From a virus (taxonomy: Duplodnaviria > Caudoviricetes): a stretch of 64,000 bases of DNA. The notes below the pieces were generated by a model. It made no database searches. It was not told where the DNA came from and saw only the letters and a program-made list of their open reading frames with translations. The position numbers were made by a program, and so were the translations under genes. Within the stretch, counting starts at the first letter, position 1; every line of letters begins with the position of its first letter. Of the stretch, positions 1 to 25,570 are shown one piece after another. Location: positions 32,001-96,000 of IMG/VR virus record IMGVR_UViG_3300032030_000028; one strand, 5' to 3'.

Positions 1-20
1 TTCGAATCTGCCTCGGGATA
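1..20 (+). tRNA. 3' fragment of a tRNA (T-loop and acceptor strand), cut by window edge
   Basis: TTCGAAT T-loop followed by stem-like CTGCC-TCGGGAT-A at the head of the tRNA cluster. Confidence 0.6.
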
Positions 21-22
21 CT

Positions 23-310
23 AGTCAAGAATAGGTTACCACCGAGTAGTGTTCGGGGTAAATTGAATGGGGATGTATACTTAACCAGTCAATGTAGTCT
101 TGGGTGGTGTGACCCCCAGCCCGATGAAAGGTGTTGGTTATCGTGAGGTGCCATAAGGTGCAACGCAACAGGAGGTAAAACCGCGTGGTAATGCAATCCT
201 CGTAATGAGATCGCCCTATGTAATGGGTAATGGTGAGATCGCCCCATGTAATGGGTAGCGGGTTCAAAGCCGAGGTTTCTCCAGTCCGTAGCTCGTAAAT
301 TTTCTTGACT
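23..310 (+). ncRNA. Unknown structured RNA, ~290 nt
   Basis: Ends pair (AGTCAAGAA / TTCTTGACT); many internal hairpins; 24-nt near-perfect direct repeat at 206-229 and 234-257; lies between tRNAs; no credible ORF. Confidence 0.6.
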
Positions 311-318
311 TTCTATAT

Positions 319-397
319 TGTCTGATAGCTCAATGGCAAGGGAACAGAGCACCTCGGGAACATCGGGGCGACGGAGGTTCGATTCCTTCTCAGACAA
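319..397 (+). tRNA. tRNA-like RNA with non-canonical anticodon loop (GGAACAT) and enlarged D loop
   Basis: Acceptor TGTCTGA/TCAGACA, D stem GCTC/GAGC, stem CCTCG/CGGGG, T arm GGAGG-TTCGATT-CCTTC; no U33. Confidence 0.65.
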
Positions 398-400
398 CAA

Positions 401-816
401 ATAATATCAGTTAACAGTAGGCTTGAAAGCAGCCATCTGATAATGAGTTGCGAGAGGAAGTTTGCGTGGAAGTCATGACTCCGCAAGAGAACAAGGCGCA
501 TGTGAGTAACTTGGCAATATACATGTGAGAAACACCTCAGGAATAACAAAAATGGAAATCCCGAATGCAAAGAAGGTAGCATAGCTGAAATGCTATGTGA
601 GGTTCCAGTAGCGTGACGGTGTATAGAAGTGATGTAGTTAAGTTTTATGTAAGCCCCAACAGTACGAGAGGAACCTGGGGTTAATGGATGCCATTAAGGT
701 TTCTATGCCGTAAGTGATTCGGTAAAGAACGCGAGAAGTATCAAGTGAAGGCTCGCGGCCAAAAGCATAAAACAGTCCTCAGAGCATTTGGCGTGATAGC
801 ACATAATTGGTATTAT
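401..816 (+). ncRNA. Large structured RNA with LSU-rRNA mimic modules (H43/H44 L11-binding domain and sarcin-ricin loop)
   Basis: 13-bp terminal helix 401-413/804-816; GTAGGCTTGAAAGCAGCCATC (417-437) resembles H43; GGCGTGATAGCACA (790-803) resembles H44; AGTACGAGAGGAAC (661-674) is closed by AGCCCCA/TGGGGTT. Confidence 0.8.
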
Positions 817-818
817 AC

Positions 819-894
819 AGGGAAGTAGCTTAGCGGTCTAGAGCGACAATGGGTGCGACGCCCGGAAACATTGGTTCAAATCCAGTCTTCCCTG
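819..894 (+). tRNA. tRNA-like RNA whose anticodon arm is replaced by a tight hairpin (GGGTG-CGA-CGCCC)
   Basis: Acceptor AGGGAAG/CTTCCCT, D arm GCTT..GAGC, T arm ATTGG-TTCAAAT-CCAGT; no 7-nt anticodon loop. Confidence 0.6.
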
Positions 895-898
895 CTAT

Positions 899-981
899 GG
901 AGAGTAAACTCGGAAGGTCTGAGCGCTGTCTCGAAAACAGACGGAGTCTAACGACTTGGGGATCGAGACCTCAGTTCTCCG
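899..981 (+). tRNA. tRNA-Ser(CGA), atypical (8/4-family, ATCGAGA T-loop)
   Basis: GGAGAGT../..GTTCTCC-G, loop CT-CGA-AA, long variable arm, G73; 8th acceptor pair is an A-A mismatch. Confidence 0.8.
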
Positions 982-986
982 CAGAT

Positions 987-1073
987 GGAGAGCTAAGCCG
1001 GCGGGGCTGGCCGCTGTTTGGAAGACAGTCGGAGTCTGAAAGATGGCTTGGGGATCGACACCTCAGTTCTCCG
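987..1073 (+). tRNA. tRNA-Ser(GGA), 8/4 fold
   Basis: 8-bp acceptor GGAGAGCT/AGTTCTCC, 4-bp T stem GGGG/CCTC, loop TT-GGA-AG, long variable arm, G73. Confidence 0.85.
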
Positions 1074-1081
1074 CAAACAAT

Positions 1082-1165
1082 GGAGAATTAACTGCAGCGG
1101 CCTGCAGGCCGGTCTTGAAAACCGTGGGAGGGTAACACCTTGGGGATCGACACCTCAGTTCTCCG
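1082..1165 (+). tRNA. tRNA-Ser(TGA), 8/4 fold
   Basis: 8-bp acceptor GGAGAATT/AGTTCTCC, loop CT-TGA-AA, long variable arm, G73. Confidence 0.85.
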
Positions 1166-1169
1166 CAAA

Positions 1170-1300
1170 GGCTTCAGTAATGAAGTTAGGTGTCCTTGGG
1201 AGGCTTAATTACCCTCCGACCGTGTGGAAACCCCACTATAGCGTACCGAGGATCGTGGGCACCCTCCGTCAGTGTAGTAGCGCTGTAAACTGACGGAGAT
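1170..1300 (+). ncRNA. Unknown structured RNA (multibranch domain plus long hairpin)
   Basis: GGTGTCC/GGGCACC and CCTTGG/CCGAGG enclose two hairpins; then a CTCCGTCAGT/ACTGACGGAG stem. Confidence 0.45.
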
Positions 1301-1340
1301 ATCCAAGCAAATAATCAGCACGAAAGTGCGTCAACATATC

Positions 1341-1432
1341 AGGTGTGTGCTGGAATTGGTAGACAGCTGAAGGAGGTTAGATCCTCACAGGGTGATAATG
1401 TAACCGTACAGATTCAAATCCTGTCGCACCTG
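1341..1432 (+). tRNA. Degenerate class-II tRNA-like RNA (Leu-type D arm, distorted anticodon arm containing TAG)
   Basis: Acceptor AGGTGTG/CGCACCT, D arm CTG-GAATTGGTAGA-CAG, T-loop TTCAAAT; irregular anticodon arm. Confidence 0.5.
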
Positions 1433-1444
1433 CAACACATAATT

Positions 1445-1518
1445 GGACCTATAGTCCCAGTGGTCTAGGATGCCTGACTGTCTATCAGGAGGCCCGGGTT
1501 CAAGTCCCTCCTAGCCCA
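1445..1518 (+). pseudogene. Chimeric tRNA-Asp(GTC) with a 3' end from another tRNA
   Basis: Normal D and anticodon arms (CCTGA-CTGTCTA-TCAGG), but 3' strand CCCTC-CTAGCCC-A does not pair with 5' GGACCTA. Confidence 0.6.
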
Positions 1519-1637
1519 CTATGAGGAGTGTACATAAACCTCAGACGTGCGCCTATGGCTCGCAAAAACATAGGTAGTTATCCGTTTATAGGTAAAACGG
1601 CGGACGGAAGCGGCCCAACCGTAAGAGGCCGCAATAT

Positions 1638-1709
1638 GGTGATATTAGTGTAATGGTAACACGAGACACTGTGGATGTCTTATTATCGGTTCAAATCCGG
1701 TATATCACC
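1638..1709 (+). tRNA. tRNA-His(GTG)
   Basis: G-1:C73, canonical cloverleaf, loop CT-GTG-GA. Confidence 0.93.
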
Positions 1710-1714
1710 CTAAA

Positions 1715-1870
1715 GGATTGGTTGATCCGAGGTTCAAGAAGGCCCCCGTAAGATGGCTAGTCGTTGGGGCAATGCTTGAGATGGATACCGCGAAGGGACA
1801 GCCATAAGTCTTGAAGTACGGTTAGATGCGGAGCTGGTGAAAGTCCAGACTATGTAGGACAATCCAATCT
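1715..1870 (+). ncRNA. Unknown structured RNA with potential pseudoknot
   Basis: Ends pair GGATTGG-TTG/CAA-T-CCAATCT; TTCAAGA/TCTTGAA; loop ATGGCT complementary to downstream AGCCAT; CTGG-TGAAAGT-CCAG hairpin. Confidence 0.55.
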
Positions 1871-1872
1871 AT

Positions 1873-1946
1873 AGCCCGGTAGCCCAACCGGCAGAGGCAA
1901 CAGATTCAAAACCTGTATAGTGTGAGTTCGAATCTCACTCGGGCTA
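1873..1946 (+). tRNA. tRNA-Leu(CAA), short-variable-loop type
   Basis: Acceptor AGCCCGG/TCGGGCT, loop TT-CAA-AA, T arm GTGAG-TTCGAAT-CTCAC, A73. Confidence 0.85.
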
Positions 1947-1954
1947 CAAAAAAA

Positions 1955-2070
1955 ATGGAACAATAGAGTAGAGAATCGGTCTGTGAGAATAAATTGCCTG
2001 CGCAGAATCCCATTCTATTCTTAAGGAAAAGGTATATTGTGGCAATTCTGATACCGAAGTACTGTTCCAT
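1955..2070 (+). ncRNA. Unknown structured RNA (long interrupted rod)
   Basis: Nested pairings ATGGAACA/TGTTCCAT, TCGGT/ACCGA, AATTGCC/GGCAATT. Confidence 0.5.
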
Positions 2071-2074
2071 TTAA

Positions 2075-2198
2075 CGGGGTATGGTCGAATTGGTAGAGAT
2101 ACCCGGTATGGACCGGGAGGTTTGTGAATAATTCCATGGTGAATAGCAAACAGAGATTCTTCGGAATCCGAATGGTGGTTCGAGTCCACCTACCCCGA
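2075..2198 (+). tRNA. tRNA-Pro-like RNA with ~55-nt two-hairpin insertion in the variable region
   Basis: Acceptor CGGGGTA/TACCCCG-A (C1:G72, A73); arm CCCGG-TATGGA-CCGGG; extra hairpins including GATTC-TTCG-GAATC; perfect T arm GGTGG-TTCGAGT-CCACC. Confidence 0.65.
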
Positions 2199-2200
2199 CA

Positions 2201-2327
2201 ATCGTTATCTAGTATCCGGCAACCTATATGAGCCGGGAATTCGAGAATATCTCGTTAATAGGCCAAGGCCATGCCCCTTGCTAGTGGGGGTTGGAGTCCA
2301 CACAGAAATGTGGGAATCACTAGCGAT
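2201..2327 (+). ncRNA. Unknown multi-hairpin RNA
   Basis: Ends pair ATCGTTA/TAGCGAT; internal hairpins CCGGC/GCCGG, CGAGA/TCTCG, CCCC/GGGG, CCACA/TGTGG. Confidence 0.45.
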
Positions 2328-2330
2328 AAT

Positions 2331-2404
2331 GTCGGTATAGCGGAGCTGGTTTCTTGCGCCTCTCTCATAAGGAGGAGACGGTGGTTCGAGTCCACCTACC
2401 GGCA
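2331..2404 (+). tRNA. tRNA(CAT), Met or Ile2
   Basis: Acceptor GTCGGTA/TACCGGC, loop CT-CAT-AA, canonical T arm. Confidence 0.88.
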
Positions 2405-2424
2405 CTCATAAAAATGTTATAATT

Positions 2425-2805
2425 ATGGAAAAGAAGATAAAGGATCGCAGATATACAATTCTCGGAATTCACCGGAACGGCACATTATACGGATGGGCCG
2501 AAAATTCATTTTCATTCTCCCCCTCCGAGGACTACACTAGGGTTTGGGGTGCTGAATACAAAGAATGCGGCAATCGTCAATATTGGAAACCTAACAAAAA
2601 TCAATCCACTTGGAATTATCTCAAGAAGGTGGCGGACGATCTGACCGCAAAGAAGTATATGGGGTGTGTATGGAAAGTGTATAGGGTCGGTAGTAAGCAC
2701 TGTCCGGTCGATATAGACTTCAGAACCTGCGATCTGATGAAAACCGGAAAAATAAAATACGACAAATATCAGGCGAGAAACCACAAATTCACGTCGAAAC
2801 AATAA
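2425..2805 (+). CDS. Hypothetical protein inside the RNA island
   Basis: 126-aa ORF with A-rich upstream, fills the gap between RNA genes. Confidence 0.75.
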   Translation: MEKKIKDRRYTILGIHRNGTLYGWAENSFSFSPSEDYTRVWGAEYKECGNRQYWKPNKNQSTWNYLKKVADDLTAKKYMGCVWKVYRVGSKHCPVDIDFRTCDLMKTGKIKYDKYQARNHKFTSKQ

Positions 2806-3068
2806 CGGGCGACCCGGATAATGGGGACTGAACAGGCGGGTTAGCTACCGCTTACGCAGCGGCGCTTCTGAGACGGATCTCAGAGACAAGCCGTAAAGTG
2901 CGGAACCGAAAGTCCAATGAGCTGTAGACAATCGGCACAAGCACCAGAACTCAGGCGAAGACAGTTGCAATAGAGCTCAATAAAGAGCTGCCAAGTCTGA
3001 GTCATTCTCTGACTGGACAGGCCAGTCCAAGAAGAAGCGTTCAGGAGGTTCGACTCCTCCTCGCCCGA
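2806..3068 (+). ncRNA. tmRNA-like RNA: tRNA acceptor and T arm closing a ~220-nt structured insert
   Basis: CGGGCGA/TCGCCCG-A acceptor, GGAGG-TTCGACT-CCTCC T arm, TGAAC/GTTCA connecting helix; no G3.U70. Confidence 0.7.
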
Positions 3069-3075
3069 CTAAGTT

Positions 3076-3159
3076 GGCCGAGTGGTGGAATTGGTAGACA
3101 CGTCAGACTTAAAATCTGGTGCCCGTAAGGGCGTGCGGGTTCAAGTCCCGCTTCGGCTA
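3076..3159 (+). tRNA. tRNA-Leu(TAA)
   Basis: Canonical class-II cloverleaf, loop CT-TAA-AA. Confidence 0.95.
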
Positions 3160-3232
3160 CAAACAATGGATATTTGGAGTGAAATTGTTAAAACGTTGTG
3201 ATTCACTCATGGAAATATTCTAACAACGTTAC

Positions 3233-3305
3233 GCGTCAGTAGCTCAGCAGGTAGAGCACATCCCTTTTAAGGATGGGGTCCCGGGTTCGAGCCCCGGTTG
3301 ACGCA
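3233..3305 (+). tRNA. tRNA-Lys(TTT)
   Basis: Canonical cloverleaf, CATCC-CTTTTAA-GGATG. Confidence 0.95.
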
Positions 3306-3314
3306 CTTATAAAA

Positions 3315-3397
3315 GGAGAGCTAAATCGGCGGGGCCGATCGCTGTTTGGAAGACAGTTGGAAGATGACGCTTTGGGGATCGAGACCTCAGTTCTCCG
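3315..3397 (+). tRNA. tRNA-Ser(GGA), 8/4 fold, second copy
   Basis: GGAGAGCT/AGTTCTCC, loop TT-GGA-AG, T-loop ATCGAGA. Confidence 0.85.
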
Positions 3398-3402
3398 CAC
3401 AA

Positions 3403-3475
3403 GCCCTTGTAGCTCAATTGGTAGAGCAACGCACCTGTAATGCGAAGGTTGCTGGTTCAATTCCGGTCAGGGGCT
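3403..3475 (+). tRNA. tRNA-Thr(TGT) with C33
   Basis: Cloverleaf GCCCTTG/CAGGGGC, loop CC-TGT-AA. Confidence 0.8.
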
Positions 3476-3492
3476 CTTATTATAATTATATT

Positions 3493-3568
3493 GGGAGTTT
3501 AGCTCAGCTGGTTCAGTAGCGTCTGCCTTACAAGCAGAAGGTCGTTGGTTCGAATCCAACAACTCCCA
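3493..3568 (+). tRNA. tRNA-Val(TAC)
   Basis: Canonical cloverleaf, TCTGC-CTTACAA-GCAGA. Confidence 0.93.
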
Positions 3569-3571
3569 CAA

Positions 3572-3862
3572 AGCTGGTATCGATGACGCTCTGGTGAAAG
3601 GATGTTTGGACGAGGGGTTCGATTCCCTCTACCTCCACTATTTCTCAGCTGACCAACCATGATGTTGGAACAGTTACGGTGGCGGAAACTTAACATGAGA
3701 TCCGTCACTTGCTTATGGGGGTAATTGGTTTTGACAGCATTTGAGTAAGAAGAGAAGAGATGCTGGTAAGTGAGAATAAATCACAACACAACTTTTCGTC
3801 TTGCCGCTTAATCTCTAGGAGATTTAGCAGTAAGGGTCCGGGCGGAACCAAATCCGCCCTTT
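3572..3862 (+). ncRNA. ssrA: Circularly permuted (two-piece) tmRNA; outer ends approximate
   Basis: T arm and TACCTCC-A acceptor strand (to 3637) precede the 5' end GGGGGTA-ATTGGTTTTGAC (3717); G3.U70 present; tag frame HNTTFRLAA-stop at 3782-3811. Confidence 0.88.
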
Positions 3863-3864
3863 AT

Positions 3865-3937
3865 GCTCTTATAGCTCAATGGATTAGAGCACGGGCCTCC
3901 GGAGCCCGGAATCCGGGTTCGAATCCCGGTAGGGGCT
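3865..3937 (+). tRNA. tRNA-Arg(CCG)
   Basis: Canonical cloverleaf, CGGGC-CTCCGGA-GCCCG. Confidence 0.93.
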
Positions 3938-3965
3938 CGAAAAATATCTATGATCTTTCCTATAT

Positions 3966-4038
3966 GCCCCGATAGCTTAATTGGAAAAGCAGTACCCTTC
4001 TAAGGTATGGAGTGGGGGTTCGAATCCCTCTCGGGGTA
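3966..4038 (+). tRNA. tRNA-Arg(TCT)
   Basis: Canonical cloverleaf, GTACC-CTTCTAA-GGTAT. Confidence 0.93.
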
Positions 4039-4055
4039 CAAAATTAAGAATTATT

Positions 4056-4340
4056 ATGACCGATCAAGAATTGTCTAGATATATCGAGATATTCGCTCTC
4101 ACTCATCCGGAATATGAGATGGATGAGGTTTGTCCTATTCCAAAGAAAGATCTTAAAGTGGGACATATATATTTAGGAGATTGTCGCAATGCAGATAAAG
4201 CAGTCTGGATTGGTGAGAAGTTTGAATATCAAAGAGATAAATTTGGAAGCACCCTCTTAGAATATATCAACCATTATGAAGATGATGACGGTTATGACGT
4301 ATTTGTTCCATTTGTAGATATTTCGAAATTTTCTTCTTAA
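4056..4340 (+). CDS. Hypothetical phage protein
   Basis: ORF 3981..4340 restarted at the first ATG after tRNA-Arg (MTDQELS...). Confidence 0.75.
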   Translation: MTDQELSRYIEIFALTHPEYEMDEVCPIPKKDLKVGHIYLGDCRNADKAVWIGEKFEYQRDKFGSTLLEYINHYEDDDGYDVFVPFVDISKFSS

Positions 4341-4386
4341 CCTTTCCGGAAATCGATTATATAAAATCATAAAAGAAATAATCGTT

Positions 4387-4551
4387 ATGAAAGAATACAG
4401 AACTGAAGATAACGGATATCAAGAAAATGCGGAACTCCGCAAAGATACTGATGAGTATGGCAACTGGCTTCCGGAACGCGACAAATCTGGGTATATGGAG
4501 AACGCCGCCCCGTGGGATAGGCCCGATACCTGGGAAGATATGGGAAGATAA
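4387..4551 (+). CDS. Small acidic hypothetical protein (54 aa, below ORF-track cutoff)
   Basis: MKEYRTEDNGYQEN...WEDMGR-stop translated by hand; co-oriented with neighbours. Confidence 0.6.
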   Translation: MKEYRTEDNGYQENAELRKDTDEYGNWLPERDKSGYMENAAPWDRPDTWEDMGR

Positions 4552-4606
4552 CTGTAAAAGAAGATAATTAAAATTTATAATAGTTAACATTAAAAATCGC
4601 AAAGAA

Positions 4607-4954
4607 ATGAAAGAAACTAAGTATTATGTAAATCCGGAAAAGAAAACGGTGGTCTGTGTCATCACCATCCAAGACGATTATTTTGGAGAAATTCATCGTT
4701 TTGAAGGCAAAGCCAAATGTTCCCCAGAAGATGATTTTGATGAAAATGTCGGTCGAGAGATTGCCCAAAATAGAGCATTCATCAAAATGAAGACACATTT
4801 TCTCAATCTGAAGAAATCCGCTCGTCTGGGTATTGCGAATCGAATTAAGGATCTTACGAAGTATGGTACGAGAATAGACGCTGGCATTCTCAGGAACGAA
4901 GGTGAAATCAAGACCGCCAAAGCTCGCATCCGCGAACTCGGAACTTCTAAATAA
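4607..4954 (+). CDS. Hypothetical phage protein
   Basis: 115-aa ORF with GKAKCSPEDDFDENVGREIA motif; followed by terminator. Confidence 0.8.
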   Translation: MKETKYYVNPEKKTVVCVITIQDDYFGEIHRFEGKAKCSPEDDFDENVGREIAQNRAFIKMKTHFLNLKKSARLGIANRIKDLTKYGTRIDAGILRNEGEIKTAKARIRELGTSK

Positions 4955-4982
4955 TTTTTTCCATAATATATCTCTTTTATAG

Positions 4983-5010
4983 AAGGTCTCTCCAGAGACC
5001 TTTTATTTTT
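4983..5010 (+). terminator. Intrinsic terminator
   Basis: AAGGTCTC-TCCA-GAGACCTT plus T tract. Confidence 0.75.
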
Positions 5011-5016
5011 TATAAT

Positions 5017-5259
5017 ATGAAGATACAAGACAATGGTACATATACCGGAAATTATTACGTATGGGAACGCAAATTGCACCAGCCATATGATTATGAACAT
5101 AATGGATTAGTCAATCGGATTTTGTCTCATAAGATCCATGACACTTCGAATCCGTTTTTGAAATATATGGTAGATGTTTATGAAAGGTCCTTAGTATATT
5201 GCATGAAATATATCGATATGTTGGCTAATTTCATTAACTATAACAAATGGAATAGATAG
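5017..5259 (+). CDS. Hypothetical protein
   Basis: 80-aa ORF with clean ATG start. Confidence 0.7.
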   Translation: MKIQDNGTYTGNYYVWERKLHQPYDYEHNGLVNRILSHKIHDTSNPFLKYMVDVYERSLVYCMKYIDMLANFINYNKWNR

Positions 5260-5313
5260 CCTGGATCTGTTTATTATAATTTTGCGTTTTTTGCAGGATT
5301 TGCTGTGATTTAA

Positions 5314-5366
5314 CAAGCGATCTCTTCGAGAATGATATAACTATTCATTTAAGAAGAGATCGCTTG
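5314..5366 (-). repeat. Dispersed palindromic element, copy 1 (inverted relative to copies 2 and 3)
   Basis: CAAGCGATC...GATCGCTTG arms around a TGA-(A/C)TAGTTATA-TCA core; between convergent genes. Confidence 0.8.
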
Positions 5367-5383
5367 AATTTGATATGGTTTTG

Positions 5384-7372
5384 CTATTTACCGGTATTCG
5401 CTAGATTAGTACCTATGGAGGACCATCCGCGTTGCGCCGCTTTATCATCGTTAGAGTTGCTCGGAGAAGCGGACCTGCCTTCCGGAGTCGGAGTACTTGG
5501 GGGAGGGGTACCGACTGCAATACTTCCGAGTTTTTCAATTCCTTGATTGGTTATTTCGTTAAACTTGTCATTTATACCCCCTAGTGTTTTGCCGATCAAA
5601 CTAGATCCTTTGTCGATCATCTTATCGAAAGGCTCTAAAGTTTTATTAGTGGTGTTTGCCGTGAAATCTTCAAGATTTTTACCAATGCGGGCACTAAGAG
5701 CATTTGCTGCGTCTAGGATGCTTCCCGTTCTAGCAATACTCTGATTCACCGCAGCATCCATAGGATCAAACACCCGGTTTACGGCAGCATTGCCGAAATC
5801 CGCAAGCTTACCCCCGACAATAGATCCCAGCCGCGTGCCTATGGTTTTGAATCTTTCACCCATTTCTTTAGAACTTTCCGCCACCATCTGAAGAGGTTTC
5901 CATACGTTTTCGGAAAGATTTTTAAGTCTTTTTTTAACACTATCCATGCCGGATTTTACCCCGGCATTGACTCCTTTTAGAAAATCTTGGGTGATTTGGT
6001 TAATAACCCGGGGTTTATACTTATCTATTATTTTTTGACCGACTTCTTCTATCTTGAGTGGTCTTTTTTTATATACATTCCCCCGTATATTGGTTATATC
6101 CCAACGAGAAATCATATCTTGAGTTTTAGGCAAGGGAATGAGTGCTGAATCCGCGGTTAAGATATGACCGGTGGCATCTCTTGCTAGAGATTCATCTCTC
6201 ATCATATTTTCATCAATCATGGATTGATATTCATTCAAAGCGCTGTTCGGATCCTCGGTCTGATATAGTTCTACGGGATTGCCGTCTTCATCCGTTTCAT
6301 CTAGCAATAATGGTATTTCGTTTCCTCTTTGATCTGAAAGAGTTTTATATTTTTTCATAGTGTCTTCAAAATCCTTGGCATGAAATGCGACATCGGCCTC
6401 TCCCCAGACATTCTCTTTGCTTTGCCGATCTTCTTTATCCATATCCATGAATATATAGTCTCCGATAATTCGATTCAAGTGGTCATTGAATCGCTGTTCT
6501 ATTATATTCTTATATGTAATTTTAATTTCATGCACCATATGAAACGGCTCATCAGATTTGATTTCGGTATAGGCACTGGACGCGGAATTGGCATCTATCT
6601 CGCAGCCTTGGAGCTCTATGAGCTTAGCGGATGAAAAAATGTTATTAGACCCTGAAGCCCATTCCCGGTAACTAGGTATATCGAATATAACCTCCGGATC
6701 GCCCATATCGGTCAATGATACGGGAGGGCGCCCGCCTAATCCATGCCTTTCTTTTTCCCTATCCACATCTCCATGCCCATAATGAACATAAGCAACAGGA
6801 GTATTGATAATATATATAGACATATCAAATCTGCGAAGGTTAGCCGGGAGAATTTCTTTATGCTGGATTTTAGAAAAAGACACCGCTTTATATAAATCTA
6901 AAAGAGTAGATATTCTATTATCATAGGGATCCTCTAAGGTCTTGATAGTTATGGATTTCGGCTCTTCATCGATTTTGAATTCCCCGGTATATTCGGATCT
7001 CTGCAGTGCTTCTTGCAGGCCTTCTATACTTTGGAAATACCATGGTGAGTAAGTATTTATATTGGAAAATAAAGTTACAAAGTCATCTAACATTTGTTTT
7101 CTTTGAAGCTCTCCATTGACATATAAATAGCTAACGGCTGTATTGGTATTTTCGGTATAACTCGTCCTGGTGGAATCTAAATCTATAAACTCTTTTCCGG
7201 TATTTAGCAAACCGTACCCCGTATTGAAATGAAAAAACAACCGGAAATAAAGGCTTGCCGGAGTTTCCATCTGGTTGAACTCTTTAGCGTAAATATCGGA
7301 ATGACCACCGGAACGCTTAAATGCCTCCCGGAGTTGATATATACTATTATATGATTTTATATTTTCTTGCAT
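5384..7372 (-). CDS. Putative virion (tail/baseplate) structural protein
   Basis: 662-aa ORF in operon with gp53-like gene; function inferred from context only. Confidence 0.6.
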   Translation of the reverse strand: MQENIKSYNSIYQLREAFKRSGGHSDIYAKEFNQMETPASLYFRLFFHFNTGYGLLNTGKEFIDLDSTRTSYTENTNTAVSYLYVNGELQRKQMLDDFVTLFSNINTYSPWYFQSIEGLQEALQRSEYTGEFKIDEEPKSITIKTLEDPYDNRISTLLDLYKAVSFSKIQHKEILPANLRRFDMSIYIINTPVAYVHYGHGDVDREKERHGLGGRPPVSLTDMGDPEVIFDIPSYREWASGSNNIFSSAKLIELQGCEIDANSASSAYTEIKSDEPFHMVHEIKITYKNIIEQRFNDHLNRIIGDYIFMDMDKEDRQSKENVWGEADVAFHAKDFEDTMKKYKTLSDQRGNEIPLLLDETDEDGNPVELYQTEDPNSALNEYQSMIDENMMRDESLARDATGHILTADSALIPLPKTQDMISRWDITNIRGNVYKKRPLKIEEVGQKIIDKYKPRVINQITQDFLKGVNAGVKSGMDSVKKRLKNLSENVWKPLQMVAESSKEMGERFKTIGTRLGSIVGGKLADFGNAAVNRVFDPMDAAVNQSIARTGSILDAANALSARIGKNLEDFTANTTNKTLEPFDKMIDKGSSLIGKTLGGINDKFNEITNQGIEKLGSIAVGTPPPSTPTPEGRSASPSNSNDDKAAQRGWSSIGTNLANTGK

Positions 7373-23428: not shown

Positions 23429-25570
23429 TTACATTATTTCTAAATTCGGAACTAAGCTCGGATATATAAATTGCCAAGCTGTATACATGTTTTTCTTATC
23501 ATCCACCGATTTAAGAATATCCCGGTTATAAGAATATCCGTATTTCGCAACAAACTTAAACCATACCTCTCTTATATTCTCATATAAATCTATTGAAGTT
23601 ATATACGTATTGTTTTTTATTCGCAACCTACAGTTTTCACATCCCATCTCGCCCAAAAATTCATTGACTAATTGTTCATACCCCCCACATTCATTATCGT
23701 ACTCTACAGCTCCAGCCACCGTAATTAATTTATCAGGAGTTTCAATAATTTTTTCATATAATCCCCGATGGAATCCGTGGTCTATAAAAAATGCATTGAG
23801 TGTGCCGTTGAGAATATCTAATCTTTCATAATCATTATAATCTTTATCATGCTGAGATATATCATATCCAAGATTGAATACTATCTGGGGTTGCCCATAT
23901 GTTTCGCATTTATGAACTTGAGGCATCCAGGCGGACCCATATGTAGAACAATAAATAGGAATACATAAGAAATTCAGCTCTCCATATCTATGCTCGCATA
24001 TGTTGAATTCCGGGTCTCCGCAAATGGTCACATCCGCATCCGATAAAGGAAGGACATAGGATGTAATCAAATCTTTCTTGCGCTCCGCATACCAGAAAAT
24101 ATCAAATGGTTCCCAATGGCATATCAGATTAATTTTCGGCCGGAAAGTCCAGTTAGGTTTCATTCCTTTGCTTAATAAGAATTCTTGTTCTCCTCTAGAT
24201 AACGGCCCTTGTATATCGGTAAAATAATTTATATTCTGATTCCAATTCCACCAAGTATATCCATCCACACTTTTCATATCCAAACCGGCATGACCACGTT
24301 TGTACTTATTGTACCAATAATCCTTGATGTTTTTGATGATATAGTGATTCACCCATACTGTATCGAGACTTCCGTCTCTCCATTTAAACATATTGTAATT
24401 CACAAGATTGCCTAAACAGTCTCGAGCGGATACACCTGACGCGGACCACACCGTATGTTCATTCATATCCAAAGCCAATCCGGATCTAGATATAGTTTTA
24501 TACCAGCCGTTCATATTCTCGGGTCGGCAATCTTTCCGGACATTATCCGCAATCGGCTCTGTACAATATTGATATATTGGTTTATCTATATCAAACGATT
24601 CGGGATTTGCATGAAAACAACGCCATTGTAAGATATAAGCATCTGTATCTGGGAAAGTGTTCAAAAAGTTTTTAATGCTCGTATAAATATCTTTATTGAT
24701 ATTAATATATTCATCAATGTCAATAAAGGCTACCCATCTATAAATATTATCGTCGCAAAATGTTTTATATTGTGTTATTTGCTGAGCCTTGGCTCCGCGA
24801 ATTTGGCGTATTTCGACTTGATTGAACTTTTTTTCCAGCCACTGATATGATTCTGGAGAATCGATATCGTTGTTGTCATAGACATATATTCTGTCAAATC
24901 CTAGTTCTAAATGCCATTTGCACCAATCTTCTAGATAATTGTTTTCTTGCTTGGCAATAGCACATATTACCGTTTCGCGAGATCGGTTCTCATATGTTTC
25001 TATAGACATAGTCAAACCAAGGTCTCCAGCGGCCTTATGCCAGGTTTCGACATCTATATCCCATTCGGGAATATTTCTTTCTAAAATTTTATTATGCACA
25101 GTTTTTCGGATAATCGTAGTACCCTGATCAAAATCATTGAAAACATGTATAAGCAGATCATCGTGCTCTCCGGCGATTTTCAGCAGCGCTTTATAACAAT
25201 CTCCATTCCACGGCCCACCAAACACCGGATCATGAGAAGCCGCACATTCAGAAATTGGCCACATATCATGACACACAATAGTCCCCCCAGTATTCAAAAA
25301 TTTAAGAGAGTTTGTAATATCTCTATATACTTGCTCATGCTGATGCAATCCATCAATGAATATTAAATCAAACATTTGCCGGTTTATAGAGAAAAAGTCA
25401 TCCGAAGCAATTATCATATTAGCGGCGGTATCCGGGTTAGGGTCCACCCCTGTTTTGAATTCGGCATTGATTTGATTAAAAACATAACCTTCCGATACGC
25501 CGATTTCTAAATATGTTTTATATTTATATTTTTCTATTAAAAAATTTAAAAGATCTAATCTATCTTTCAT
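23429..25570 (-). CDS. Class I SAM methyltransferase fused to GT92/GT2-like glycosyltransferase
   Basis: YLEIGV and FDLIFIDGLH motifs; then ICAIAKQEN.YL.DW..WH..LGFDRIYVYDN and WVAFIDIDE (DxD). Confidence 0.8.
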   Translation of the reverse strand: MKDRLDLLNFLIEKYKYKTYLEIGVSEGYVFNQINAEFKTGVDPNPDTAANMIIASDDFFSINRQMFDLIFIDGLHQHEQVYRDITNSLKFLNTGGTIVCHDMWPISECAASHDPVFGGPWNGDCYKALLKIAGEHDDLLIHVFNDFDQGTTIIRKTVHNKILERNIPEWDIDVETWHKAAGDLGLTMSIETYENRSRETVICAIAKQENNYLEDWCKWHLELGFDRIYVYDNNDIDSPESYQWLEKKFNQVEIRQIRGAKAQQITQYKTFCDDNIYRWVAFIDIDEYININKDIYTSIKNFLNTFPDTDAYILQWRCFHANPESFDIDKPIYQYCTEPIADNVRKDCRPENMNGWYKTISRSGLALDMNEHTVWSASGVSARDCLGNLVNYNMFKWRDGSLDTVWVNHYIIKNIKDYWYNKYKRGHAGLDMKSVDGYTWWNWNQNINYFTDIQGPLSRGEQEFLLSKGMKPNWTFRPKINLICHWEPFDIFWYAERKKDLITSYVLPLSDADVTICGDPEFNICEHRYGELNFLCIPIYCSTYGSAWMPQVHKCETYGQPQIVFNLGYDISQHDKDYNDYERLDILNGTLNAFFIDHGFHRGLYEKIIETPDKLITVAGAVEYDNECGGYEQLVNEFLGEMGCENCRLRIKNNTYITSIDLYENIREVWFKFVAKYGYSYNRDILKSVDDKKNMYTAWQFIYPSLVPNLEIM

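Follow-up and report, generated by a model that had tools for sequence, protein, structure and literature searches.

A phage tRNA-island RNA resembling the GTPase-associated centre of 23S rRNA and carrying a sarcin-ricin hairpin

A structured RNA between two tRNA-like genes

The window analyzed here (64,000 nt) comprises bases 32001-96000 of the 110-kb virus record IMGVR_UViG_3300032030_000028 from IMG/VR, which has an estimated completeness of 49%. A T4-like portal protein is encoded at window positions 59815-61653, and the first 4 kb are a plus-strand tRNA island, in which Rfam and ARAGORN find about a dozen tRNA matches and a permuted transfer-messenger RNA (tmRNA). Within this island lies the subject of this report, a putative RNA of about 416 nt whose two ends rebuild the top of helix 42 (H42), helix 43 (H43) and helix 44 (H44) of 23S ribosomal RNA (rRNA), the GTPase-associated centre. 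The two halves are separated, at the point equivalent to Escherichia coli positions 1090/1091, by a structured insert of about 340 nt that contains a sarcin-ricin-loop hairpin. The RNA is a member of a large and apparently undescribed family of phage RNAs. Sequence comparisons make it probable that this is a stable non-coding RNA, present in a single copy in a T4-like phage, and that it works away from the ribosome by imitating the factor-docking site.

No plus-strand open reading frame (ORF) of 30 or more amino acids (aa) is found in the inter-tRNA interval 398-818, and a promoter and terminator scan of window positions 1-5400 gave counts at chance level, with none inside the RNA. We infer that the RNA of 398-818 is excised by the 3' and 5' processing of the tRNAs on either side. 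The carrier genomes examined have one copy each. Features are listed in Table 1. The rRNA reference was the E. coli gene rrlH (L345:2260-5163), in which nucleotides 1051-1108 and 2646-2675 read as expected. Covariation was assessed in an alignment of the window with 33 non-redundant relatives (alignment A1), with a consensus structure from RNAalifold plus one helix added after checking, 42 pairs in 10 helices altogether.

Table 1. Features of the RNA and of the genes that flank it, in window coordinates
Feature	Position	Strand	Basis
Upstream tRNA-like gene, 3' end 3 nt ahead of the RNA	319..397	+	Rfam tRNA, 40.4 bits; not called by ARAGORN
Inter-tRNA interval, presumed released RNA of ~416-421 nt	398..818	+	Rfam tRNA matches stop at 397 and resume at 819
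Closing helix, 5' strand, in the H42 position; pairs with 804-816	401..413	+	Read directly; kept in MFE fold; double changes at 9/9 aligned pairs (33 relatives)
Copy of 23S H43 (E. coli 1057-1081), loop UGAAAGC, G425 = 1067	415..439	+	Comparison with rrlH; motif unique in window
Junction AUAAUGAGU = E. coli 1082-1090, including 1082:1086 (A440:U444) and A446 = A1088	440..448	+	Alignment A1
Insert start: Pa 5' strand (449-451), GA (452-453), Pb 5' strand (454-457)	449..457	+	Covariation in relatives
Subdomain 1 of the insert, with variable hairpins; Pb 3' strand at 535-538 closes it	458..538	+	Conserved ACC-ACAGGGA block aligns; inner hairpins predicted
Pc 5' strand AGGA; pairs with UCCU 776-779 and closes subdomain 2	539..542	+	Double changes at 4/4; 98.5% paired
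Hairpin with conserved CUGAAAUG loop	579..598	+	Loop kept in most relatives; compensatory pairs 582/595 and 585/592 versus relative L023
Pd 5' strand; pairs with 765-773, encloses sarcin-ricin hairpin and three further hairpins	642..650	+	Six aligned pairs, 90.9% paired
Sarcin-ricin-loop hairpin: stem 653-658/676-681, 12-mer 661-672, GAGA loop 666-669	653..681	+	Exact 12-mer; stem has double changes at 6/6 pairs
3' strands of Pd (765-773), Pc (776-779) and Pa (784-786), conserved linker AGA	765..786	+	Block GCCCUUAGAGCA conserved in A1
Linker UUUG and copy of 23S H44 (791-803 = E. coli 1091-1103), loop GUGAUA, G795 = 1095	787..803	+	Comparison with rrlH; A1
Closing helix, 3' strand, partner of 401-413	804..816	+	13 bp read directly
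Downstream tRNA-like gene, start 2 nt past the RNA	819..894	+	Rfam tRNA, 42.6 bits; not called by ARAGORN
MFE, minimum free energy.

A split copy of the GTPase-associated centre

Window positions 415-448 are identical to E. coli 1057-1090 at 23 of 34 positions. Six of the eleven differences make up three compensated pairs (1057/1081, 1058/1080 and 1082/1086), and two more yield GAGU at 1087-1090, as in real Bacteroidota and Bacillota 23S rRNA. The H44 half, at 791-804, is identical to E. coli 1091-1104 at 11 of 14 positions. An initial reading of the window by a model that worked from the letters alone, hereafter the sequence-only reading, had described the two halves as keeping their ribosomal order around a long insert, inside a 13-bp closing helix with two G.U pairs. 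The alignment to E. coli bears out the first description and direct reading of 401-413 against 804-816 the second, with the G.U pairs at 407.810 and 410.807. This helix is retained by the unconstrained MFE fold (z = -2.4). The H43 motif occurs once in the window, and none of 100 shuffles gave any match to it. In the H43 copy, a base of 415-417/437-439 is followed by a top of 420-423/431-434, and the base pairs covary (AU/CG, UA/GC/AU/CG); in the H44 copy the supported pairs are 791-792/799-800.

The likeness to the ribosomal domain (E. coli 1051-1108, the 58-nt uL11/thiostrepton fragment) extends over helices, loops and junction, and takes in U1060, A1088, the UAA turn, a covarying 1082:1086 pair and the base triple 1072:(1092-1099), which in the window reads C:C-G (C430:(C792-G799)). 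The phage RNA differs from the ribosomal centre in being free-standing, with its own variable closing helix where 23S rRNA has a continued H42, in being split at 1090/1091, and in having A rather than U at 1101 (A801). The window copy, moreover, has A426 at 1068 and, as the sequence-only reading had noticed, G in place of the E. coli A at both 1067 (G425) and 1095 (G795).

The sarcin-ricin hairpin and the architecture of the insert

The 12-mer AGTACGAGAGGA at 661-672, already singled out in the sequence-only reading as the universal sarcin-ricin sequence, is identical to E. coli 2654-2665. As AGUACGAGAGGA it is found once in the window, and 100 shuffles gave no match. By alignment to E. coli, G662 is the bulged G2655, A667 is A2660, and G668/A669 is the alpha-sarcin bond. 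By sequence, the bulged-G motif runs A661 G662 U663 A664 C665, GAGA, G670 G671 A672, with C665-G670 closing the loop. The hairpin thus shares with helix 95 (H95; E. coli 2646-2674) its 12 nt, the bulged G, the U.A and A.G pairs, the C-G closing pair and the GAGA loop. It differs from H95 in its stem, which is unrelated and covarying, in its setting, a multi-helix junction within a 416-nt RNA, and in a tetraloop that is variable in the subfamily. The flanks of the motif (CAGUACGAGAGGAACC, C..AC) are unlike the UAGUACGAGAGGACCG (U..CC) of five real bacterial 23S genes; they may correspond to the eukaryotic form, that of the rat 28S loop.

The insert opens as a three-way junction of helices Pa, Pb and Pc with purine-rich linkers, branching at 1090/1091, and one arm bears Pd and the sarcin-ricin hairpin. 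Pa (449-451/784-786) is 100% paired in A1, with double changes at two of its three pairs, and Pb (GAGG 454-457/CCUC 535-538) is 97.7% paired; tandem G.A pairs probably form at 452.783 and 453.782. Five of the six aligned pairs of Pd have double changes, and its terminal U.G is kept in 30 of 33 relatives. The remaining hairpins of the constrained fold are predicted. The sequence-only reading had nested the sarcin-ricin hairpin in two helices. Its stem (653-658/676-681) and the helix 642-650/765-773 exist and covary; the proposed GAGGA/TCCTC helix was mis-assigned, in that homologues support two separate helices there, namely Pb and Pc (AGGA 539-542/UCCU 776-779).

A family of phage RNAs

Exact-pattern scans of IMG/VR and JGI metagenomes, filtered for both halves on one strand, found the split GTPase centre in 95 loci at first and later in 142, all of phage or metagenome origin, with 56-429 nt between H43 and H44. 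In many members all 34 positions of E. coli 1055-1088 are reproduced. The window RNA itself had no blastn match among 50,697 phage records, its relatives being reached through motifs and through other family members. Loci with a 16-base junction pattern numbered 47 viral and 120 metagenomic; 73 of these lack the 3' half, and the eight inspected looked like chance matches. Among 120 bacterial-genome hits to a 14-base pattern, one was a real locus and the rest were chance, and the family therefore appears essentially phage-borne.

In 66 of the first 95 loci tRNAs are present, within 100 nt in 38, and 29 have no tRNA. In all 52 family loci with a tRNA no more than 500 nt away, that tRNA is on the same strand. 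The window RNA shows the features that define the family: a self-closing helix, split H43 and H44 with A1101, an insert opened by Pa, and a phage-borne position beside co-oriented tRNAs. Fifty-four distinct sequences have its insert junction (Pa/Pb/Pc). It also carries the subclass signature, GAGU-NNC-GAG-NGG ... CC-NC-AGGGA ... CCCUNAGAG-NNN-UUUGGCG with a Pd hairpin that has AGUA/GA and a tetraloop. The sarcin-ricin subclass has so far been found only in uncultured phages. Relative L023, from a phage genome that is complete at 361 kb, has a 91% identical copy in the same tRNA context. None of the 43 differences between this copy and the window RNA falls in H43, the junction or the sarcin-ricin hairpin, and both G.U pairs of the closing helix are Watson-Crick pairs there.

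Cultured phages also carry family members, in every case unannotated. They include Pseudomonas phage pf16, where the copy sits between tRNA-Asn and tRNA-Pro, Astolliot, UNO-G1W1, Aeromonas 4_4572, Xanthomonas phage XacN1 and Cronobacter GAP32; further carriers are Serratia BF, Erwinia pEa_SNUABM phages, Pectobacterium CBB and Ralstonia RSP15. The XacN1 member (AP018399.1, L509:1495-1722) has 228 nt and no sarcin-ricin hairpin. It follows a 2'-5' RNA ligase gene and is itself followed by a G+C-rich, terminator-like hairpin and a T run, with no tRNA within 1.5 kb.

The sequence-only reading had seen in the RNA a design belonging to no described family. Rfam 15 has no family on 401-816, either at the gathering threshold or at E<=10, Rfam gave no match to the XacN1, Lak and L060 copies, and searches of the full-text literature turned up no account of the family. 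That reading had further staked its case on homologues conserving both mimicked elements and on the lack of collinear alignment to large subunit (LSU) rRNA or a known non-coding RNA family. Both the sarcin-ricin and the H43/H44 elements proved to be conserved in most lineages, and no collinear alignment was obtained. The covariance models for GOLLD and ROOL, group I and group II introns and RNase P likewise gave no match on 401-816, even at E<=10, and these identifications were rejected.

Covariation and probable retention of the fold

In alignment A1, 92.7% of cells form a standard pair, compared with 36-46% when the partner is slid by one to three columns. Double changes occur at 33 of the 42 pairs (16-21 when slid), and the covariation score is 0.566 (at most 0.147 when slid); none of 500 shuffles reached these values. 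Helices with support are the closing helix, the base and top of H43, Pa, Pb, Pc, Pd, the sarcin-ricin stem with C665-G670, and H44. Pair 1082:1086 reads U:A, C:G or A:U, and the UAA turn at 1083-1085, U1060, G1087 and A1088 are invariant.

A larger set of 152 family sequences, with counts not de-replicated by lineage, was used for single positions. The triple 1072:(1092-1099) is C:C-G in 113, U:U-G in 29 and U:U-A in nine, with one exception. In the rRNA domain, positions 1072, 1092 and 1099 are reported to make up a covarying base triple (Conn, Gutell and Draper 1998). Because the covariation of the triple is that known from real rRNA, the three-dimensional fold of the uL11 domain is probably kept. 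The exposed positions 1067 and 1095 are purines in 151 and 150 of the 152 sequences, respectively; they are dispensable for folding and, in the ribosome, make contact with EF-G, the tRNA elbow and thiostrepton. All 152 sequences have A at 1101. Since A1101 and the insertion at 1090/1091 are specific to the family, a single origin is indicated, rather than repeated capture from host rRNA genes (rDNA).

Two explanations that require no function for the likeness to rRNA can be judged against these data. The first, that the locus is a degenerate rRNA gene fragment or an rDNA contamination of the contig, has stretches of identity to 23S rRNA to its credit. These are, however, three short matches only (1057-1090, 1091-1104 and 2654-2665), about 1600 nt apart in 23S rRNA and rearranged here. 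A blastn comparison with E. coli 23S rRNA found no other consistent piece inside the RNA, and Rfam found no LSU match even at E<=10. Strong covariation, moreover, is seen in helices that do not exist in rRNA, and the 91% identical L023 copy recurs in the same tRNA context of a complete phage genome. We regard this explanation as refuted and give it practically no weight. The statement in the sequence-only reading that this is a purpose-kept RNA and not an rRNA fragment is thereby upheld, the family having covarying helices in its insert.

The second explanation is that the RNA is a cis-acting module of the tRNA array, serving processing, spacing or stability, or a retained intron-like insert, with its likeness to rRNA a relic of capture from host rDNA. 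The position between tRNAs, with spacers of 2-3 nt, and the frequency of homing HNH genes nearby fit such a module. The conservation of exposed loop nucleotides and tertiary contacts over more than 140 diverse loci does not, and repeated capture is hard to square with A1101 and the insertion at 1090/1091. Some members, moreover, stand alone without tRNAs (XacN1 with its terminator-like hairpin, and the 29 of 95 loci noted above), and no group I or II intron model matches. We therefore think a cis-acting module very improbable.

Variation across the family

In the 33 relatives of alignment A1, the bulged G of the sarcin-ricin motif is present in 28, the A.G pair in 27, the U.A pair in 27 and the C-G closing pair in 30. 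Lineages L385, L432 and L400 no longer have the motif. The Lak megaphages of Prevotella have the same scaffold, with 74% identity to relative L028 over 277 nt. In Prevotella phage Lak-C1 (L508:1497-1925; MK250029.1, ~87631-88059) a scaffold of ~430 nt, without annotation, lies directly upstream of an intron-containing tRNA.

Such variation raises the possibility that only the uL11 domain matters, the RNA titrating free uL11 (or uL10-bL12) and the sarcin-ricin-like hairpin being a generic packing block of the insert rather than a mimic of H95. Common to the whole family is the uL11 domain, while insert length runs from ~56 to ~430 nt and the sarcin-ricin tetraloop is variable, with the motif lost in Lak as well as in the three lineages just named; bulged-G (loop E) modules, besides, are common in structured RNAs. 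Against this possibility, the window and 14 of 33 non-redundant relatives have the full 12-mer of universal H95 without a change, and the motif is retained even as the hairpin stem covaries. Out of all rRNA, the partner element chosen is the one that works together with the GTPase centre. The pool of free uL11, finally, is small. On balance we judge titration of uL11 alone to be unlikely.

The rRNA variant copied by the family was compared with real Bacteroidota 23S rRNA (75 copies sampled; genomes G007-G159). About one third of these have GGCUUGGAAGCAGCC together with GUAACA. The Bacteroidota GTPase centre has two variants, one with G1067 and C1097 (GGCUUGGAAGCAGCC ... GCGUAACAGC) and one with A1067 and, mostly, U1097. 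Because G1067 occurs in these real 23S genes, A1067 is not universal in bacteria, and G1067 cannot be taken as a mark of archaea or eukaryotes. Within the mimic family, G1067 accompanies the sarcin-ricin form (28 of 38, versus 10 of 84 otherwise), an association that may reflect phylogeny. The combination seen in the window, UUGAAAGC with GUGAUA, occurs in none of the sampled rRNAs. The idea that the mimic tracks the rRNA variant of its host was dropped on these grounds: XacN1 has GUAACA, Lak is highly diverged, and the UUGAAAGC/GUGAUA of the window matches no sampled rRNA.

Partners and proposed function

Five carrier genomes, among them the record of the window, a close relative (100% complete) and two more at 94-100%, were searched for genes encoding possible partners. 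None encodes uL11, uL10, a translational GTPase (GTP_EFTU) or RelA/SpoT (RelA_SpoT), and bL12 gave no hit above the cut-off and one sub-cut-off hit, in G003. Clustering of the ORFs within 3 kb of 192 loci revealed no conserved protein neighbour; the clusters that did form (TerD, HNH endonuclease, CCA-adding enzyme, RNase H and similar) reflect related phages. Because the carriers encode none of these proteins and share no conserved protein neighbour, any partner of the RNA must be host-encoded.

A mechanism can be proposed in which the RNA would be transcribed with the tRNA array and excised by host tRNA-processing enzymes, with RNase P acting at its 3' side and tRNA 3' processing at its 5' side. 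The conserved fold-determining nucleotides suggest that it would then bind host uL11, and perhaps uL10-bL12, and so present, away from the ribosome, a surface like the factor-docking site of the 50S subunit. As a decoy it could capture a host protein that normally docks at that site. The likeliest target would be a ribosome-inactivating enzyme, of host defence or of a competitor, that hits the GTPase centre or the sarcin-ricin loop, and the RNA, as a tight pseudo-substrate, would protect ribosomes during infection. A free decoy of the factor-docking site aimed at such an enzyme is the reading that we favour, tentatively and with a little less than even confidence. VapC20 cleaves the sarcin-ricin loop, and tRNA/tmRNA islands are a translation-maintenance kit used by phages against tRNA-targeting defences. 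Tre23 ADP-ribosylates 23S H44 at nt 1095-1098 and blocks the GTPase activity of EF-G (PMC8661411). A decoy for ribosome-inactivating enzymes is ranked first because such enzymes exist for exactly these sites and because the surrounding island is a translation-maintenance kit.

Several observations weigh against the decoy. Most family members have no sarcin-ricin hairpin at all. In the 33 relatives the tetraloop is GAGA, the target of known sarcin-ricin toxins, in 14, another GNRA loop in seven and not GNRA in 12. The scaffold persists in the Lak megaphages with degenerate H43/H44 loops and a degenerate sarcin-ricin hairpin (GGGGUUUUGAGUGCCC; AUUACAAGAGGAA). Positions 1067, 1068 and 1095 of the window are unlike those of all 75 Bacteroidota 23S copies sampled. 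No anti-phage toxin is known to us that strikes the GTPase centre or sarcin-ricin loop, Tre23 being an interbacterial toxin. Ribosomes, finally, far outnumber any decoy, so that a decoy would need a much higher affinity than theirs.

A more specific proposal, possible but less likely than not in our estimation, is that the RNA and host uL11 (perhaps with uL10-bL12) form a free mini factor-binding centre, with H43/H44 and the sarcin-ricin hairpin held in ribosome-like geometry, that traps ribosome-inactivating defence enzymes or engages GTPases or RelA off the ribosome. Such a complex, if real, would amount to a naturally occurring "ribosome in pieces" and would add a new class of phage RNAs for counter-defence or host takeover.

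Alternatively, the RNA might be a sponge, or a platform, for host factors of translation or the stringent response (with uL11: RelA, EF-G, EF-Tu or another GTPase that reads both sites), sequestering such a factor, as in blunting the RelA-dependent stringent response during infection, or setting off its activity away from the ribosome. Oligonucleotides representing either site alone are reported to bind EF-G in vitro (Munishkin and Wool 1997), and both mimicked elements are also ribosomal contacts of RelA. Both are ribosomal contacts of translational GTPases (PMC8661411). The conserved purines at 1067 and 1095, the exact bulged-G motif in 28 of 33 relatives and the fact that carrier phages encode none of these proteins are in keeping with a sponge. 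The tetraloop that positions the catalytic histidine of the GTPase varies, however, and this variation between lineages weakens a strict GTPase-activation reading; activation of a factor cannot be the universal role, because the Lak megaphages are degenerate at both mimicked sites. Most members, as noted, lack the sarcin-ricin hairpin, and phages need EF-G and EF-Tu, which would make sequestration costly. A factor sponge or platform accordingly strikes us as rather unlikely, if worth keeping in view.

Should the RNA be a decoy as proposed, phages would be seen to imitate not just tRNAs and proteins but also a functional rRNA centre, in the form of a free RNA. The factor-docking site would then be an unrecognized battleground, with host enzymes that attack the GTPase centre or sarcin-ricin loop in infection still to be found. 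The RNA would also offer a compact natural scaffold that joins both halves of the GTPase-activating site, useful for work on EF-G, EF-Tu, RelA, thiopeptides and ribotoxins. The large family in cultured phages (pf16, XacN1, GAP32, Aeromonas 4_4572) makes the core question experimentally accessible now.

Comparison with known systems

Leaders of ribosomal protein mRNAs (rplJL for L10(L12)4, and those for L1 and S15) are likewise non-ribosomal RNAs that copy a protein-binding site of rRNA. They are short and cis-regulatory, and lie upstream of the ribosomal protein gene that they control, whereas the phage RNA lies among tRNAs and copies a far larger portion of the site, tertiary contacts included. 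A leader of this kind was rejected for the phage RNA, which is flanked by tRNAs in genomes where no uL11, uL10 or bL12 gene was found among the five carriers searched.

GOLLD and ROOL resemble the phage RNA in being large, highly structured, phage-borne RNAs, often beside tRNAs. The phage RNA does not match their Rfam models, and neither is known to mimic rRNA. Closest in proposed purpose are the phage tRNAs that replace cleaved host tRNAs and the pseudo-ToxI RNA of phage PhiTE, which imitate a host or defence RNA to neutralize a toxin and share the tRNA-island context. Here, in contrast, the imitated molecule is a functional centre of rRNA, and we know of no cognate toxin for it.

Other features of the island and window

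The flanking genes 319-397 and 819-894 and the tRNA-like genes at 2075-2198 and 1445-1518 are weak Rfam tRNA matches (23-43 bits) missed by ARAGORN; the match at 2075-2198 is 124 nt long and probably contains an insert. Other spacers between tRNAs (23-310, 1715-1870, 1955-2070 and 2201-2327; 115-290 nt) contain neither an ORF nor an Rfam match. At 897-1167 lie three tRNA-Ser-like genes in tandem, each with a long variable arm, that have the 3' end GGGGATCGA(G/C)ACCTCAGTTCTCCGCA in common. Their anticodons, read by eye, are CGA, GGA and UGA, and none is called by ARAGORN; the one at 1081-1165 scores 43.8 bits with the tRNA-Sec model, under the cut-off of that model.

The tmRNA of the island is circularly permuted (two-piece) and matches Rfam tmRNA_permuted at 3577-3811 with 62.1 bits. 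ARAGORN places a permuted tmRNA at 3544-3965 and gives it a different tag. Eight of the ten largest ORFs in the window have no Pfam match. On the minus strand, positions 23429-25570 encode a 713-aa protein with methyltransferase and family-2 glycosyltransferase domains.

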